DNA of 64,000 bases from Escherichia coli (GTDB lineage: Bacteria; Pseudomonadota; Gammaproteobacteria; Enterobacterales; Enterobacteriaceae), in NCBI RefSeq assembly GCF_003334765.1, contig NZ_QOWT01000003.1. The stretch is one strand, 5' to 3'. The position numbers and the translations under genes were made by a program. Positions within the stretch are counted from its first letter, which is position 1. Every line of letters starts with the position of its first letter. Below the pieces are notes generated by a model. It was not told where the DNA came from. It saw nothing but the letters and a program-made list of their open reading frames with translations, and made no database searches. This document shows positions 11,262 to 55,350 of the stretch, in pieces.

Positions 11262-11338
<77 letters not shown>

Positions 11339-11546: not shown

Positions 11547-12644
11547 ATGAAAGGACGTTGGGTAAAGTACCTTCTTATGGGCACGGTTGTGGCAATGCTT
11601 GCCGCCTGCTCTTCCAAACCAACCGATCGCGGACAGCAATATAAAGACGGGAAATTTACCCAGCCTTTCTCTCTGGTGAACCAGCCAGATGCCGTTGGCG
11701 CGCCGATTAACGCCGGTGATTTTGCCGAGCAAATTAACCATATCCGTAATTCGTCACCGCGTCTGTATGGCAACCAGAGTAATGTTTATAACGCGGTGCA
11801 AGAGTGGCTGCGCGCAGGCGGTGATACCCGCAATATGCGCCAGTTCGGCATTGATGCCTGGCAGATGGAAGGTGCCGACAACTATGGTAACGTGCAGTTT
11901 ACCGGTTATTACACGCCGGTAATTCAGGCGCGCCATACCCGCCAGGGCGAGTTCCAGTATCCTATTTACCGTATGCCGCCAAAACGTGGTCGTCTGCCGT
12001 CTCGTGCGGAGATCTACGCGGGGGCATTGAGTGATAAATATATTCTCGCTTACAGTAACTCCCTGATGGATAACTTCATTATGGATGTGCAGGGTAGTGG
12101 GTATATCGACTTTGGTGATGGCAGTCCGCTTAACTTTTTCAGCTATGCAGGGAAAAACGGTCATGCCTATCGCAGCATTGGTAAGGTGCTGATCGACCGT
12201 GGCGAAGTGAAAAAAGAAGATATGTCGATGCAGGCGATTCGTCACTGGGGCGAAACACACAGTGAAGCCGAGGTTCGCGAGCTGCTGGAACAGAACCCGT
12301 CTTTCGTCTTCTTTAAACCGCAATCTTTTGCTCCGGTGAAAGGGGCAAGTGCGGTGCCGCTGGTTGGTCGCGCGTCAGTTGCCTCTGATCGTTCCATTAT
12401 TCCGCCAGGTACTACCTTGCTGGCAGAAGTGCCGTTGCTGGATAATAACGGCAAATTTAATGGTCAGTACGAACTGCGTCTGATGGTGGCGCTGGATGTC
12501 GGTGGTGCAATCAAAGGCCAACACTTCGATATCTATCAAGGGATCGGGCCGGAAGCCGGACACCGCGCAGGTTGGTACAACCACTATGGACGTGTCTGGG
12601 TGCTGAAAACCGCCCCGGGCGCAGGTAACGTCTTTAGCGGCTGA
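11547..12644 (+). CDS. mltA: Membrane-bound lytic murein transglycosylase A (lipoprotein)
   Basis: ORF track starts at 11118 and spuriously runs through the tRNA; the real start MKGRWVKYLLMGTVVAMLAACSS (lipobox LAAC) is ATG 11547, giving 365 aa. Confidence 0.93.
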   Translation: MKGRWVKYLLMGTVVAMLAACSSKPTDRGQQYKDGKFTQPFSLVNQPDAVGAPINAGDFAEQINHIRNSSPRLYGNQSNVYNAVQEWLRAGGDTRNMRQFGIDAWQMEGADNYGNVQFTGYYTPVIQARHTRQGEFQYPIYRMPPKRGRLPSRAEIYAGALSDKYILAYSNSLMDNFIMDVQGSGYIDFGDGSPLNFFSYAGKNGHAYRSIGKVLIDRGEVKKEDMSMQAIRHWGETHSEAEVRELLEQNPSFVFFKPQSFAPVKGASAVPLVGRASVASDRSIIPPGTTLLAEVPLLDNNGKFNGQYELRLMVALDVGGAIKGQHFDIYQGIGPEAGHRAGWYNHYGRVWVLKTAPGAGNVFSG

Positions 12645-12678
12645 TGTGATATTCTGTATGCCGTTTTTACGGATATGA

Positions 12679-12863
12679 CAGGGTGAGGGGTAACCTCACA
12701 TCCTGATTATTGACTAAGTGCGCGTTGTTCATGCCGGATGCGGCGTGAACGCCTTATCCGGCCTACAAATCATGCAAATCCAAAATATTGCAGGAGTTAT
12801 GTAGGCCTGATAAGCGTAGCGCATCAGGCATTTATGCGTTTAGGGTGAGGGATAACCTCGCCC
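12679..12863. repeat. BIME/REP cluster: two inverted REP palindromes flanked by near-identical hairpin-forming direct repeats
   Basis: REP copies GCCGGATGCGGCGTGAACGCCTTATCCGGCCTAC (12733-12766) and inverted GTAGGCCTGATAAGCGTAGCGCATCAGGC (12801-12829); flanking GGGTGAGGG(G/A)TAACCTC at 12681-12700 and 12843-12860. Confidence 0.8.
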
Positions 12864-12882
12864 TTTTTAATTCTGAGGTGCT

Positions 12883-13689
12883 ATGTCTGTGGTAATTAGT
12901 GATGCATGGCGTCAGCGTTTTGGTGGCACAGCGCGTCTGTATGGTGAAAAAGCGTTGCAACTGTTTGCTGACGCGCATATTTGTGTGGTTGGTATCGGTG
13001 GTGTCGGTTCCTGGGCGGCGGAAGCGCTGGCGCGCACGGGGATTGGCGCAATCACGCTTATCGATATGGATGATGTGTGCGTCACCAATACCAATCGGCA
13101 AATTCATGCCCTGCGCGATAACGTTGGGCTGGCAAAAGCGGAAGTTATGGCGGAGCGTATTCGCCAGATTAACCCGGAGTGCCGTGTAACGGTGGTGGAT
13201 GATTTCGTGACGCCGGATAACGTAGCGCAGTATATGAGCGTGGGTTATTCGTACGTGATTGATGCCATTGATAGTGTACGGCCCAAAGCGGCGCTGATTG
13301 CTTATTGTCGGCGCAATAAAATCCCACTGGTCACAACCGGTGGCGCGGGTGGGCAGATTGATCCGACGCAGATTCAGGTTACCGATCTGGCGAAAACGAT
13401 TCAGGACCCGCTGGCGGCGAAGTTGCGCGAGCGCCTGAAAAGCGATTTTGGCGTAGTGAAAAACAGTAAAGGTAAGCTCGGCGTGGATTGCGTGTTTTCT
13501 ACTGAAGCGCTGGTGTACCCGCAGTCAGACGGTACGGTGTGTGCGATGAAAGCCACGGCAGAAGGGCCGAAGCGGATGGATTGTGCATCTGGATTTGGCG
13601 CGGCAACGATGGTGACCGCCACCTTTGGGTTTGTTGCGGTTTCTCATGCGCTGAAGAAGATGATGGCGAAAGCGGCGCGTCAGGGTTAA
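12883..13689 (+). CDS. tcdA: tRNA threonylcarbamoyladenosine dehydratase (ThiF/MoeB-like E1 fold)
   Basis: 268-aa ORF with nucleotide-binding motif GIGGVGS; recognised as TcdA (CsdL/YgdL). Confidence 0.9.
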   Translation: MSVVISDAWRQRFGGTARLYGEKALQLFADAHICVVGIGGVGSWAAEALARTGIGAITLIDMDDVCVTNTNRQIHALRDNVGLAKAEVMAERIRQINPECRVTVVDDFVTPDNVAQYMSVGYSYVIDAIDSVRPKAALIAYCRRNKIPLVTTGGAGGQIDPTQIQVTDLAKTIQDPLAAKLRERLKSDFGVVKNSKGKLGVDCVFSTEALVYPQSDGTVCAMKATAEGPKRMDCASGFGAATMVTATFGFVAVSHALKKMMAKAARQG

Positions 13690-15823: not shown

Positions 15824-16029
15824 AAAAAAAAGCACCGCAATTAGGCGGTGCTACATTAATCACTATGGACAGACAGGGTAAATGTACAGGAAGTGAAAAA
15901 AGGTAGCTTTGCTACCATGGTCTGAATCGCAGACCAATTGCAAACACAACAACACAACATCACAACCGTAAGCCAAAAGTTCACCAGAACACGCATTCCG
16001 ATAAAACTTTTCGTTCCGGCTCAGGAAGT
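15824..16029 (-). ncRNA. gcvB: GcvB small regulatory RNA (Hfq-dependent, regulates amino-acid transporters)
   Basis: Reverse complement reads ACTTCCTGAGCCGGAACGAAAAG...GCACCGCCTAATTGCGGTGCTTTTTTT, the 206-nt GcvB sequence with GU-rich R1 region and intrinsic terminator; divergent from gcvA. Confidence 0.92.
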
Positions 16030-34200: not shown

Positions 34201-34569
34201 GTCGACAGGGAGTCAGACAACGAAGTGAACATCAGGATGATGACACTTCTGCAGGACACACCAGGATGGTGTTTCAGGGAAAGGCTTCTGGATGAAGCGA
34301 AGAGGATGACGCAGGACGCGTTAAAGGACACCTCCAGGATGGAGAATGAGAACCGGTCAGGATGATTCGGTGGGTCAGGAAGGCCAGGGACACTTCAGGA
34401 TGAAGTATCACATCGGGGTGGTGTGAGCAGGAAGCAATAGTTCAGGATGAACGATTGGCCGCAAGGCCAGAGGAAAAGTTGTCAAGGATGAGCAGGGAGC
34501 AACAAAAGTAGCTGGAATGCTGCGAAACGAACCGGGAGCGCTGTGAATACAGTGCTCCCTTTTTTTATT
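34201..34569 (+). ncRNA. csrB: CsrB sRNA, CsrA-sequestering decoy
   Basis: About 369 nt beginning GTCGACAGGGAGTCAGACAACGAAG with roughly 18-22 GGA motifs, mostly CAGGA(U/A)G in predicted loops; ends in hairpin GGGAGCGCTGTGAATACAGTGCTCCC plus T7. Confidence 0.93.
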
Positions 34570-40680: not shown

Positions 40681-40803
40681 GACAGAAAACCAAAACCGGC
40701 TCTATCTGGAGCCGGTTTGAGACTGATGCTAAACGCAAAATAGCCTGTTGTGCTATGTATCAGGTCTACATCATTTTTTAATTCATTGAATTTAATTGGT
40801 TTT

Positions 40804-40839
40804 GTAGGCCGGATAAGGCGTTAACGCCGCATCCGGCAT
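40804..40839. repeat. REP palindrome
   Basis: GTAGGCCGGATAAGGCGTTAACGCCGCATCCGGCAT seen in sequence. Confidence 0.8.
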
Positions 40840-40911
40840 AAACACAGGCACTTTGTCACCAATCTGAAACCAGCGTCATAAAAAGCCGATTGCTACTCGA
40901 CAAGACATCCA

Positions 40912-43668
40912 TTACCCGAGAATTTTGCTGGCTTCGCGCGCGACATTATCCATCTCGTCCAACAGTTCCAGCAGCTCCGGTTCCAAATCTTCTTCTTTAG
41001 TACCGCTACGTAGCTGTTGTTCGATCAGTTGGCAGAGATTCTTCATACGTGGCACACCGCTATAGCCGCAACTGCCATGCAGTTTATGAATCAAATCAAC
41101 CAGGCCTTCCGGGTTTTCTCCAACCAGCTGTTCCTCAACTTTGTTGCGAACTTCAGGCAGGAAATCGAGTAACATTTGCAGCATATCGCGCGCTAAATCG
41201 GTTTTTCCTGCTGCCTGGCGTAGTGCCAGTTGCCAGTCGAGGGTCGCATTCGGGTTCACCACAATTTCGTTGACTTCGGGCGTCACGACGCGAGAGGAAA
41301 TACCGCTGCCAGGCTTGTAGCGCAACAACAAATTATGCAATCGCTCTTCTTCAATCGGTTTCGCCAGATAATCGCTCATCCCTGCGCCAAGCAGCTTCTC
41401 TTTTTGCCCGGCCATTGCATGCGCCGTTACCGCGATAACCGGCGTTTGTTGCTGATGCGGGAGTTGGTGGATGAGTTCGCAGGCCCGAATGCCATCCATG
41501 TCCGGCATTTGAATATCCATTAAGATCAAATCGAACGGCATCTGTTTCGCCCGTTCAACCGCCTGATGCCCGCTATCGCAAAGTTCCACATGTTGCACCA
41601 TATCTTCCAGCAATGCGCCGATAAGTTTCAGGTTAGCGGGGTTGTCATCAACCGCCATGACTGTCATTGCCAGCTTACTTTCATCGGTTACAGGCAAAAG
41701 CGTGTTTTGTTTGTGATGACAAAATTCCGTCAGGGCAGGCAACAGGCGTGTAGGTGTTAATGGTTTCAGCAGACACGCGCCGATACCATCTTGCTTGAGT
41801 TTTTCAGCATTGACTTGTGCATGGCAAGGAAGTGCCAGCATCAGGAAATCGGTCATCGATACCGCTTTCGCTAATCGCTCATGTTGCATTGTTAGCGGCT
41901 CGCGGAAGGTCACCGCGATGCCTAACAACATCATGTCGTAATGCGCGGGAGGCAGCGCGGAGAACGTTGGGCTATAAACCACTTCCAGCGGCGTTTCACT
42001 TAAAATATCCAGCGTGCATTGCGCTGCTGCGGAGTTTGGTTCGACATAGGCCAGGCGCTTACCTGCGAGGCACTGGGTGGATGGCCCTTCGATAATAATG
42101 TTCGGGTTCAGATCGAGATTAATGTGGAACCAGAAAGTTGAACCGCGATTCGGCTGGCTATGGAACGAAATATCGCCGCCCATTTCATTAACCAGTTTTT
42201 GTGTAATCACCAGCCCCAGCCCGGTGCCACCATGACGGCGGGAAATACTGGCATCAGCCTGTCGGAAGGCCTGGAATAAGCGCGATTGATCGCGTTCAGG
42301 AATACCAATGCCGGTATCCCGAATCTGCACTTCAATCTGCACTTTGGTATTACTCAGCGCACGTTTTTCTACCAGAATATCAATGTTGCCATTCTCGGTG
42401 AATTTAATTGCATTCCCCACCAGGTTAGTGATGATTTGCTGTAATCGCAGCGGGTCGCCGATCACGTTATCAGGCACGTCGCTTTTAATATTGAGCGTCA
42501 GTTCTAACCCTTTATCGTGAGAAGAATGTGCCAGCAGAGTAACGACTTCATCCAGCGTGCTGCGTAGTGGGAATGGAATACTTTCCAGAATCAGCTTACC
42601 TGCTTCCAGTTTCGAGAAGTCGAGAACATCATTAATAATTGCCAGCAAATTATTTGCCGAACGTTCAATCGTATTCAGGTGATCGCGCTGCGTTGGTGTT
42701 AATTCTGTTTTCAGCGTCAGGCGGGTAAAGCCAATAACACCATTCAGTGGTGTACGCAGCTCGTGTGACATATTTGCCAGAAACTCGGATTTAATACGCG
42801 CCGCTTCCTGGGCGCGCTTTTTCGCCAGATCTAACTCAACGTTCTGAATTTCCATCTGCTCCAGCGTTTCACGCAGATCGGACGTCGCCTGGTCGATATT
42901 GTGCTGCATCTCTTCGTGATAAGCAGCCAGCGACATTGCCATCGAGTTGATACCGTTTTTCAGCATATCCAGCTCGCCGAGCATAAATCCTTCCACCCGG
43001 CTGTCGAGTTGCCCGCGACGGATGCGGTCGACGGTATTCACCATGTTGCGAATCGGACCGGTTACATCGCGCATTAAGCGCCAGCCAAAAATAAGCGCAA
43101 TACCGATACAAAACAGCATCATCACGCTGGAAATAAAGATCTCTTTATATTGCTGCAAGCGAACCGATTTAAGATCCAGCTCCAGCGCAATATATCCCAA
43201 CATATTTTGACTATTTTTGGCATCGCTACTGGGCGATTCGTCGGGGGAGTAACTCTCAGAAATAATCGGCGTGCGGAGGATCATAATATCGCCGTCACGA
43301 GTGACAGTGAGCTGGCGAGGAAACGGCACGTTGCTGCCGAGCTGCATTGATGAGGGATCAAGATGAAAATTGGAGGTGACAAAGAGTCGGTTATTTTCAT
43401 CATAAACCGAAATCGCGCGAACAATATCGGAATGGCGACGATGCAGTACGCTTATTAACTGACCGATAGATTCGCGATTTTGCAGGCTCATGCCATATTC
43501 AGTAGAAACTGCAAGCGGCTCAATAATGCTGGCACCGGCATCTTCCAGTTGACGCTGCAAGTCGTTATAGCGATGCACGACGAAAAAGATACTCAGCAAT
43601 AAACCAATAAGGACGGTCGGTGCCAGGATCAGAATCATCATGCGTGCGCGCAGGCTGTAGTTGGTCAT
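40912..43668 (-). CDS. barA: Hybrid sensor histidine kinase BarA (tripartite HK-REC-HPt)
   Basis: 918-aa ORF with HAMP, H-box SHELRTPLN, receiver domain and C-terminal HPt; recognised as BarA. Confidence 0.95.
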
Positions 43669-54099: not shown

Positions 54100-54317
54100 T
54101 ACAAATTCTGTGGCATTAATTTTTCGCTGGAGTGAAAATTATTGCGGTAAAGTTTGGTAGATTTTAGTTTGTATAGAGTTATTTTAAATATTTACCTTTT
54201 TAATCAATGGATTAAGTGCTCTTTAACATAATGGATGTGTTGTTTGTGTGATACTATAAAGTTGGTAGATTGTGACTGGCTTAAAAAATCATTAATTAAT
54301 AATAGGTTATGTTTAGA
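54100..54317 (+). promoter_or_regulatory. AT-rich CRISPR leader (promoter-containing) directly upstream of the first repeat
   Basis: AT-rich tract ending ...CTGGCTTAAAAAATCATTAATTAATAATAGGTTATGTTTAGA immediately before repeat 1; upstream boundary approximate. Confidence 0.7.
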
Positions 54318-54712
54318 GTGTTCCCCGCGCCAGCGGGGATAAACCGGCAAAAACCGGGCAATCGCAAAAAGGCGTAATGTGTTCCCCGCGCCAGCGGGGA
54401 TAAACCTGTGTTTGCGGCATTAACGCTCACCAGCATTTCGTGTTCCCCGCGCCAGCGGGGATAAACCGACGTGGTCATGGGTGCTGCTGTTGCAGAGCCA
54501 GTGTTCCCCGCGCCAGCGGGGATAAACCGAGCAGATACACGGCTTTGTATTCCGTGCGCCCGTGTTCCCCGCGCCAGCGGGGATAAACCGAATAGCAATA
54601 GTCCATAGATTTGCGAAAACAGGTGTTCCCCGCGCCAGCGGGGATAAACCGGAGCCTGACGAGACTACTGAGGCCGTTCTGTCGAGTTCCCCGCGCCAGC
54701 GGGGATAAACCA
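54318..54712 (+). CRISPR. Type I-E CRISPR array, 7 repeats and 6 spacers of 32 bp, leader-proximal end at 54318
   Basis: 29-bp repeat GTGTTCCCCGCGCCAGCGGGGATAAACCG at 54318, 54379, 54440, 54501, 54562, 54623 and 54684 with 61-bp period; repeat 2 ends CCT; terminal repeat is degenerate (GAG...ACCA). Confidence 0.96.
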
Positions 54713-55166
54713 CCATATAACCCGTTATCTCTTTCTCAAGTTTTTATATTAGCAGTACTTGTAATAAGCAACATATCCACGTAACACCTCATGTTCAAAA
54801 TAGTTCTCCATGCCAGAGAGGTTCACAATTATCGATACAAAAAATTAAATTTAATCAAAGTGTTATTTGTATGATTCTTAAATCGTTAAGAAATTTTAAT
54901 CTATTATTTTTTTAATATTGAATTAATGCCTGTTAATTTTTTCTTTAGAATAACAGTATATTTTTTAAGCTTGTTATTCATTGGTTAAGTAATAAATCTG
55001 GAAGTTTGTCTTTGTTTTGAGGCTAATGAGTGGTTTTACATAACCGCCTCTATACGCTGTTGATGAATAGTTCTTATGAATAAAGATATCCAGTTCATAC
55101 TTTAAGTGAAAATTGATAAAGTGCGATTCGTATTGTCTTTTATTCTAAAGACATCGAGTGTAGTTA

Positions 55167-55304
55167 ATATTCCTTGTAAAAACAGGGATAAACCGAACTA
55201 GTTAAAGTTTTTATTATGTTCCCTGCATCAGCGGGGATAAACCGGACTTGTTATCATTTTTTAAGTTGTCGAACTTATGTTCCCCGCGTCAGCGGGGATA
55301 ACCA
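55167..55304 (+). CRISPR. Degenerate I-E mini-array: 2 recognisable repeats, 1 clean 32-bp spacer, 1 eroded repeat
   Basis: ATGTTCCCTGCATCAGCGGGGATAAACCG (55216-55244), spacer GACTTGTTATCATTTTTTAAGTTGTCGAACTT (55245-55276), ATGTTCCCCGCGTCAGCGGGGATAACC (55277-55303); eroded repeat ending GGGATAAACCG at about 55195. Confidence 0.75.
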
Positions 55305-55350
55305 TTCAGGTATGTTCAGGCCGGGCAGTTTCCCGCCCGGCCTTCCTCAC

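Follow-up and report, generated by a model that had tools for sequence, protein, structure and literature searches.

A BIME-1 element between mltA and tcdA of Escherichia coli is probably bracketed by two copies of the mltA terminator hairpin, a pattern that recurs at other BIME-1 loci

The two near-identical direct repeats that bracket a REP pair between mltA and tcdA of Escherichia coli are most probably two copies of the mltA terminator, which arose together with the insertion of a 142-bp BIME-1 element. The best explanation we can offer, with a probability of roughly 0.8, is that BIME-1 inserted at a hairpin, that the whole hairpin was duplicated in this process, that this is a general rule for BIME-1 and that the element was later lost again in E. 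coli. The evidence for this putative insertion footprint is comparative throughout: comparison of loci and alleles shows element junctions at fixed positions, a hairpin as target, a duplication equal to this hairpin and one hairpin at the empty site.

Direct repeats and BIME-1 in the mltA-tcdA spacer

The window, which is the whole 64-kb stretch of E. coli DNA (64,000 nucleotides) that was analysed, contains the following features in and around the mltA-tcdA spacer:

11547-12644, plus strand: mltA coding sequence with the stop codon at 12642-12644 (ORF list; RefSeq records 100% identical to the window name it mltA)
12680-12699, plus strand: direct-repeat copy 1, a probable duplicate of the mltA terminator hairpin on the upstream side (alignable with the one terminator of empty alleles)
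12700-12841, plus strand: 142-bp insert, BIME-1 (alignment to empty alleles; outgroup intergenic regions)
12703-12718, plus strand: left terminal inverted repeat CTGATTATTGACTAAG, family consensus CAGATTGCTGACAAAG (alignment to other copies; 14-copy consensus)
12733-12766, plus strand: Y-type REP or palindromic unit, with CTAC at its end (REP search; inverted repeat finder)
12767-12800, plus strand: L linker of BIME-1 (Rfam ES036/CssrF match at 12766-12808)
12801-12829, plus strand: Z1-type REP with GTAG at its start, inverted relative to the Y REP (REP search; inverted repeat finder)
12830-12841, plus strand: sub-terminal segment on the right, ATTTATGCGTTT (compared to the usual right inverted repeat GTCATCAGTCTC, the outermost 12 nt are absent)
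12842-12868, plus strand: intact intrinsic terminator containing direct-repeat copy 2 at 12842-12861 (terminator scan and fold)
12883-13689, plus strand: tcdA coding sequence, the downstream neighbour (ORF list and RefSeq records with a 100% match to the window)

The sequence order is thus mltA stop codon, a short spacer, copy 1, 142 bp with the REP pair, copy 2, CCTTTTTAATTCTGAGGTGCT and the tcdA ATG. The initial annotation had described near-identical, hairpin-forming direct repeats around a REP pair between mltA and tcdA; window search, shuffles and folds bear this out, a Y REP and a Z1 REP are found between genes annotated as mltA and tcdA, and the repeat coordinates given there (12681-12700 and 12843-12860) are right within 1-2 nt. 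Copy 1 (AGGGTGAGGGGTAACCTCAC, 12680-12699) and copy 2 (AGGGTGAGGGATAACCTCGC, 12842-12861) are identical in 18 of 20 positions and have a start-to-start spacing of 162 according to the repeat finder. Their common motif AGGGTGAGGG[G/A]TAACCTC[A/G]C occurs in the 64-kb window only at these two places, and an 18-mer search of the same window with up to three mismatches returned just these two matches, a result obtained in none of 100 dinucleotide-preserving shuffles. Copy 1 folds into a 6-bp stem (GTGAGG/CCTCAC, -10.3 kcal/mol), with the final stem bases and the T-run gone. Copy 2 folds into a 9-bp stem (-17.2 kcal/mol, z = -4.9) and was also found by the terminator scan, with the stem at 12842-12864 and the T-run TTTTT at 12864-12868. 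It has the form of an intrinsic terminator, a G+C-rich stem-loop with a T-run directly after it, and ends about 14-18 nt 5' of the tcdA ATG (12883). A promoter scan of the mltA-tcdA intergenic region found none.

The REP pair consists of one Y and one Z1 unit in inverted orientation with a long conserved L linker between them, a composition which we take to be that of BIME-1, alias RIB or RIP. The L linker presumably represents the IHF-site region of RIB/RIP elements, with putative IHF binding. Such elements are reportedly composed of a Y REP, an L linker with an IHF site, a Z1 REP and flanking motifs named 'A' and 'B', as is said to have been described by Gilson in 1991, by Boccard and Prentki in 1993 and by Bachellier in 1994. 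The composition of BIME-1 is also summarised in PMC3333891, which shares part of this naming. The window element is extragenic, present as a single non-tandem copy and located at the 3' end of a transcription unit (12644 to 12883); sharing composition, size and place with BIME-1/RIB/RIP, it is a member of this group. As in a REPIN, its two inverted REPs with the conserved GTAG are able to fold into one long hairpin. The linker aligns to the linkers of other BIME-1 copies, and the whole 43-nt Rfam model ES036/CssrF is matched at 12766-12808 with 46.5 bits (gathering score 37.6). This 'sRNA' family, which matches the L linker in full, may describe a part of repeated DNA and not a dedicated sRNA gene.

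The window copy is incomplete at its right end. Its left inverted repeat is present (12703-12718) and preceded by 3 nt (ATC) that separate it from copy 1, the right repeat stops 12 nt short, and the alignment to the 152-nt consensus of the family ends at position 140. As the right repeat is shortened and the ATC filler unexplained, the window junction is not a textbook transposon end.

Some other features of the window can be mentioned here. Further Rfam matches above the gathering score are located at 34210-34569 (plus strand), 15824-16029 (minus strand) and 11265-11338 (minus strand) and correspond to CsrB, GcvB and one tRNA, the tRNA match being placed just upstream of mltA. Weak Rfam matches below the gathering score (naRNA4, mir-76, Ysr224 and others) are REP-derived or due to chance. 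A CRISPR array at 54314-55306 has seven repeats GTGTTCCCCGCGCCAGCGGGGATAAACCG with a spacing of 61 bp at 54314-54713, and three further, degenerate ones are located at 55163-55306.

Empty sites, outgroups and the age of the insertion

A 421-bp query across the site matched in all of 5,426 complete E. coli genomes, with the full-length form being present in 2,752 of them. In the remaining genomes the match is split in two and covers, among the matches listed, 259 bp (258 in two) compared to 421, and all 19 short alleles that were sampled are 162-163 bp shorter. Four short alleles and one divergent long allele were retrieved for alignment. Each of the four short ones carries one motif copy, GACAGGGTGAGGG[G/A]TAACCTC[A/G]CCCTTTTTAATTCTGAGG, with the single hairpin forming a perfect terminator (-17.7 kcal/mol), and their alignment shows that the filled site is longer than the empty one by exactly 142 bp and a second 20-bp copy.

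We also extracted the mltA-tcdA spacers from 80 loci identified by a TcdA scan of species-representative genomes. One terminator copy within a spacer of 76-77 nt is found in Citrobacter amalonaticus, C. sedlakii, Citrobacter sp. NCU1 and Phytobacter massiliensis, and one copy is also present in Enterobacter spp., Leclercia, Lelliottia and Salmonella arizonae. The hairpin of C. sedlakii is identical to that of one E. coli empty allele, and copy 2 of the window is the same in form as the single terminator of the empty alleles and of C. sedlakii. Two hairpin copies without an insert were found in none of the examined spacers from the 80 TcdA loci. Since the outgroups have one copy and no genome examined combines two copies with the absence of the insert, we take one terminator to be the ancestral condition, with the second copy having arisen together with the insertion.

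Judged from these alleles, the repeats are a target duplication and not the ends of a composite element, and as in MITEs the duplication flanks the insert and is reduced to a single copy at the empty site. The initial annotation had left two origins open and suggested comparing strains that lack the REP pair. Its second suggestion, a duplication of the mltA terminator upon insertion of the REP pair, agrees with empty sites and outgroups, all of which have one copy and are 162 bp shorter, and a two-copy empty site was not seen in the strains without the pair. Its first suggestion did not hold. A larger composite mobile element with terminal direct repeats of its own might be imagined from the symmetric position of the repeats around the REP pair, but the motif is found nowhere else in the window and occurs once at the empty site in E. 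coli as well as in other genera; it is locus-specific and belongs to a target that existed before, and other BIME-1 copies are flanked by different, unrelated hairpins specific for their own locus. We regard this origin as hardly credible.

Only slightly more credible, and still very improbable, is that the two-hairpin state is older than the element, with a tandem duplication followed by a later entry of BIME-1, or that the filled form came first and every single-copy form goes back to a deletion. Within E. coli such deletions between the repeats apparently do take place, but no genome examined has two hairpins and no element, and the non-Escherichia genera are all single-copy. Moreover, many unrelated loci show the order hairpin-element-hairpin with the repeat in direct contact with the ends of the element, which makes a two-step accident unlikely.

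The insertion is not restricted to E. coli proper, as we found it in E. albertii, in Escherichia sp. E1V33 and in a record named E. coli SCPM-O-B-8794. All three have the same idiosyncratic right junction as the window, in which ...ATGCGTTT is followed by AGGGTGAGG. Their flanks show 41-55 differences to K-12-like sequence over 600 nt (7-9%); filled and empty alleles of E. coli differ at 7-17 positions over 600 nt (~2%) and are intermixed. The simplest reading of these sequences is a single old insertion before the split of E. coli, E. albertii and the cryptic Escherichia lineages. With the insertion being common to E. albertii and two deep lineages of Escherichia, the empty alleles of E. coli are probably secondary and precise losses by deletion via the 20-bp repeats, and recombination between lineages could also shuffle filled and empty alleles. 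An abstract by Bachellier from 1997 is said to mention a presence/absence polymorphism and 'excisions of a whole BIME-1'. Filled and empty alleles alike vary at the two positions in which the repeat copies differ, so that these positions are uninformative on the history of loss, and the mismatches between the two copies (2 of 20) need later mutation or recombination as an explanation.

In E. albertii copy 1 reads AGAGTGAGAAATAATCTCGCTCT (L008, ~1013-1035) and differs from the ancestral hairpin by G3>A together with C21>T and by G9>A together with C15>T, with the 9-bp stem being kept. This hints that the T-less upstream hairpin may be maintained under selection in the mltA 3' UTR of E. albertii. 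The BIME-1 copy of the same E. albertii locus is without the left inverted repeat.

Two other spacers are rearranged in different ways. In E. coli D10 (L003, 1-405) the 3' part of mltA is duplicated beside the empty BIME site, and RefSeq annotates a partial '3D domain-containing protein' pseudogene after the complete mltA. Enterobacteriaceae bacterium UBA5654 (L027, 562-1200) possesses a 639-nt mltA-tcdA spacer with four to five tandem units, each consisting of the last ~30 nt of mltA (GGGACGGGTAACGTGTTTAGCGGCTGA) and a CCCTCTCCCT...AGGGAGAGGG palindrome.

Element ends and flanking hairpins at other BIME-1 loci

A metagenome scan with a 19-mer from the Y/L junction gave 120 stretches mostly from E. 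coli-like gut contigs, and a BLAST search of the 152-nt consensus over these stretches and the window (1.06 Mb) yielded 32 distinct BIME-1 loci; a scan of viral contigs for the Y/L junction gave 7 loci only. The ends of the element at these 32 loci are 14-16-bp terminal inverted repeats (CAGATTGCTGACAAA). In the consensus of 14 complete copies the left end is CAGATTGcTGACAAaGTGCgCg and the right end, reverse-complemented, GAGACTGATGACAAAcGcAAAA, and 13 of 16 positions match between both. The best other match to the 142-bp insert in empty-site strains is located in the fepA-entD spacer (90% identity, positions 6-142), where the copy starts with CAGATTGTTGACAAAGTGCGCG and ends with GCGTTTGTCATCAGTCTC, together again an inverted repeat. 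Three loci including the window (L152 at ~2912, L187/L094 and window position 12841) end at consensus position 140-141 (...GCGTTTG) and in two of the three the flanking repeat begins directly after it, so that this may be an alternative short right end and not decay. A likeness of the inverted repeats to the ends of IS1 or IS26 was discarded, being weak and judged by eye. When looking for an autonomous partner, BLAST of the left end against plasmids gave BIME-1 copies only, several of them in chromosomes filed as plasmids. The exact 16-mer had 82 matches in viral contigs, which we treat as chance because none is adjacent to a REP or has a second inverted repeat as its partner within 6 kb. Neither plasmids nor viral contigs thus yielded an autonomous element bounded by these inverted repeats.

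For each element the 45 nt on the left were then compared with the 45 nt on the right, using 992 mismatched left/right pairs as controls. The flank-to-flank local alignment score is higher than all 992 controls in 9 of the 32 loci and above the 99th percentile in 10, and two or three further loci have visibly decayed versions of the flanking repeat. In the high-scoring loci the repeats adjoin both ends of the element and are themselves hairpins, and flanks folding at -8 kcal/mol or better are much more frequent next to the element (47% left, 50% right) than among distal controls (2%). In 10 of 11 loci the repeat and the main hairpin have the same limits within ~2 nt, and the length of the repeat, 18-28 nt, tracks the size of the hairpin while its sequence is different at each locus. 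As the loop has the same orientation in both copies, the flanking repeats are direct and not an extension of the inverted repeats. At least 10 loci are thus flanked by direct repeats of 18-28 bp that are particular to the locus and correspond to a terminator hairpin; ~60% of the sampled loci have no clear flanking repeat, with decay or secondary deletion being demonstrated at two loci only. From these comparisons we conclude that BIME-1 elements in general are associated with a duplication of the entire hairpin. The cleanest example, L182, is identical in 23 of 23 positions, and since this locus has no counterpart in E. coli genomes no empty site was recovered. T-runs are equally frequent on the right (11 of 32 loci) and on the left (12 of 32), so there is no bias with respect to terminator direction, and a strand-specific model tied to the direction of transcription was dropped.

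The window itself harbours another copy:

40686-40891, minus strand: second BIME-1 in the window, with the element at 40719-40866, a strong terminator hairpin at 40686-40718 and a decayed hairpin copy at 40867-40891

It is located between a 918-aa ORF (40912-43668, minus strand) and a convergent 454-aa ORF. The terminator hairpin on its right side is AAACCGGCTCCAGATAGAGCCGGTTTT, and the decayed look-alike on its left side, AATCGGCTTTTTATGACGCTGGTTT, abuts the left inverted repeat and agrees in ~16 of 26 positions, a likeness judged by eye.

A flanking duplication together with a single copy at the empty site is also found at three further loci and in one Cedecea-like pair. At ysgA-metE a filled contig has ACGGGTGGCGTTGCCACCCGa before and ACGGGTGGTGTTACCACCCGG after the element, and E. 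coli 442/2 is empty with a single CGGGTGGTATTACCACCCGG. The uspB-pitA locus, read as filled when the query coverage is >=80%, is so in 1,941 of 5,426 E. coli genomes, and it is empty in strain L65 with the single terminator CGAGCGGGTCAGTTTACTGGCCCGCTTTTTTT. At tsx-yajD strain 550 is empty with one terminator, and the repeats of a filled contig are 27 bp long. In K-12 BW25113 both the right inverted repeat and the right hairpin of this copy are gone, a 40-bp deletion relative to L129, and a comparison of L214 with L208 revealed a second one-sided loss; the one-sided hairpins at some copies can therefore be attributed to secondary loss, which is seen at these two loci. In BW25113 (L300) the left hairpin of the tsx-yajD copy is changed on both sides of the stem (GCCGGGAT...ATTCCCGGC).

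In other genera the mltA-tcdA spacer has received different elements. A Kosakonia/Phytobacter spacer (L021) has a different REP-bearing element between two copies of a GGGTGAGG terminator, and in three Cedecea-like spacers (L045, L047 and L061) the insert has a copy of the terminator of these genomes, the unrelated CGGGCTGTATAATCAGCCCG, on either side. L047 and the empty L058 differ almost only by the insert, with a 22-bp repeat. The L047 element (1017-1152) is 136 bp long, starts with AGGTTGCTGACAAAG and ends with GGTTTGTCAGTGGTCT, and has the same kind of inverted repeats and no REP, which suggests that the inverted repeats rather than the REPs may be the conserved ends. The elements of L047, L045 and L061 are all ~140 bp long and REP-less with TGACAAA...TTTGTCA ends, and the first 47 nt of the L047 element form a hairpin built from inverted-repeat-like sequence.

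Proposed insertion mode and relation to known elements

In the course of events that the comparisons show, an ancestor had one intrinsic terminator after mltA, GAC-AGGGTGAGGGATAACCTCACCCT-TTTT. A non-coding BIME-1 of ~150 bp, consisting of left inverted repeat, Y REP, L linker, Z1 REP and right inverted repeat, entered at the 3' foot of this hairpin, leaving the 20-bp hairpin segment on both sides of the element. The downstream copy kept the T-run and is the predicted terminator of mltA transcription just before tcdA. The upstream copy lost its T-run, so that transcription of mltA would be expected to pass copy 1 as well as BIME-1 and to end at copy 2, and BIME-1 presumably becomes part of the mltA 3' UTR. 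In about half of E. coli, recombination or slippage between the 20-bp repeats could later have restored the single terminator exactly.

The integration itself would be specific for the ends of the element as well as for the target structure. The two target strands might undergo breakage or joining at either foot of the folded hairpin, in a cruciform or in single-stranded DNA, and repair synthesis would then result in the duplication of the whole palindrome. As the 18-28 bp track the hairpin size, the length of the duplication would be set by the hairpin and not by a fixed stagger, and a single-strand context is favoured because 6-11 bp is a short stem length for a cruciform to be extruded from duplex DNA. 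That BIME-1 and its REP-less relatives in Enterobacteriaceae integrate at the feet of folded terminator hairpins and thereby duplicate the whole hairpin of 18-28 bp is a tentative model to which we give slightly less than even odds.

Candidate enzymes would be the REP-associated Y1 transposase or another transposase that recognises the inverted repeats. The tips of the inverted repeats contain a C|T dinucleotide (...TC|TG, ...TC|TC), and TnpA-REP is described to cleave C|T dinucleotides in vitro at variable distance from REPs (PMC3333891). Against TnpA-REP speaks that IS200-type transposition proceeds without target repeats, and the REP-less relative argues against a dependence on REPs. Single-strand transposition of the IS200/IS605 type is described in PMC3333891 and PMC2817692 as causing no target duplication and as needing no terminal inverted repeats.

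The footprint might also result from a replication error without any element-specific enzyme, if a polymerase stalled at the terminator hairpin, copied BIME-1 from elsewhere and returned to a position upstream. With targets that are always hairpins, an element that is itself a long palindrome, a duplication of variable length and a window copy with an incomplete right end and a 3-nt filler, this would have its appeal. Yet at no fewer than nine (>=9) independent loci the repeat abuts the same positions of the element (CAGATTG..., ...CAGTCTC) to the nucleotide, the same ends bound the REP-less element of another genus and no microhomology is visible at the junctions, and we consider such an error unlikely, although less so than the composite element or the older two-hairpin state. 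Insertion of BIME-1 at a hairpin with duplication of this hairpin is thus the reading that we prefer.

Among known systems, MITEs such as ERIC/IRU, Correia/NEMIS and RUP share with BIME-1 the size of ~150 bp, the lack of coding capacity, terminal inverted and flanking direct repeats, many copies and a long hairpin; their target duplications are short, fixed and often TA, whereas here they are long, variable and equal to the hairpin. IS1397 and ISKpn1, which use REP loops, the IS110/IS1111 family with REPs and attC as targets, and group IIC introns also choose their target by extragenic hairpin structure. They enter in or beside the hairpin with a duplication of 0-4 bp, and in contrast to BIME-1 none of them duplicates the whole hairpin; group IIC introns insert after terminator stems. 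Long and variable direct repeats, with target duplications much longer than 10 bp, are known from IS1634 and IS1549. These elements share the length-variable duplication with BIME-1, but they are autonomous and occur in unrelated hosts, and we know of no tie of their repeats to a hairpin. REPIN/RAYT systems (TnpA-REP, an IS200/IS605-like Y1 HUH enzyme) share the inverted REP doublet, the GTAG, the non-autonomous nature, the vertical inheritance and the slow movement. REPINs are considered to insert without target duplication, whereas BIME-1 shows 20 bp at the window locus and 18-28 bp elsewhere, in addition to conserved inverted repeats outside the REPs; the C|T dinucleotide in the tips of these repeats is the one cleaved by TnpA-REP in vitro (PMC3333891). 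Correia elements have an IHF site as well (PMC2229807, PMC3184786).

Previous descriptions of BIME-1, as far as their accessible text goes, come without transposon-like terminal inverted repeats or a duplication of flanking terminator hairpins. Ton-Hoang 2012 defines BIME-1 by its REPs and the linker and states the mechanism as unknown, Delihas 2011 describes REPs without MITE signatures, a 2026 preprint calls the insertion 'semi-random' and its in vivo mechanism not established, and Di Nocera 2013 describes insertions of REPs within small palindromes in other species, with the word 'duplication' being absent from the main text. Targeted term searches within the available text of PMC3333891, PMC2817692, PMC3116915, PMC3733652, PMC3184786, PMC2229807, PMC2267715, PMC8049555, PMC1525189, PMC12306157 and preprints gave no passage in which REP/BIME insertions are linked to a duplicated terminator or hairpin; the papers of the Hofnung and Gilson groups from the 1990s, in which the flanking motifs 'A' and 'B' were reportedly described, may have noted the repeats.

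Taken alone, the mltA-tcdA case is a routine target duplication, and its value is that of an example for a regular and apparently unremarked footprint of BIME-1. REP and BIME sequences are the most abundant repeats in E. coli, and a reproducible footprint with fixed element ends, a hairpin as target and duplication of the whole hairpin makes the question of their insertion testable, as it predicts where new copies land, which form a trap target should have and what an enzyme has to do at the two feet of the hairpin. If true, this mode of insertion would be one that is not described for REP/BIME, REPIN or MITE elements, and movement would depend on the outer inverted repeats as ends instead of on the REPs. 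In annotation, a hairpin that lacks a T-run and directly precedes a BIME-1 should be taken as an old terminator and not as a separate feature. The precise loss via the duplicated hairpin would lead back to the site as it was before, in agreement with the ~50/50 polymorphism in E. coli. An insertion that regenerates an intact terminator downstream would be tolerated, which could explain in a simple way the known bias of these elements towards the 3' ends of transcription units, where termination would be left intact.
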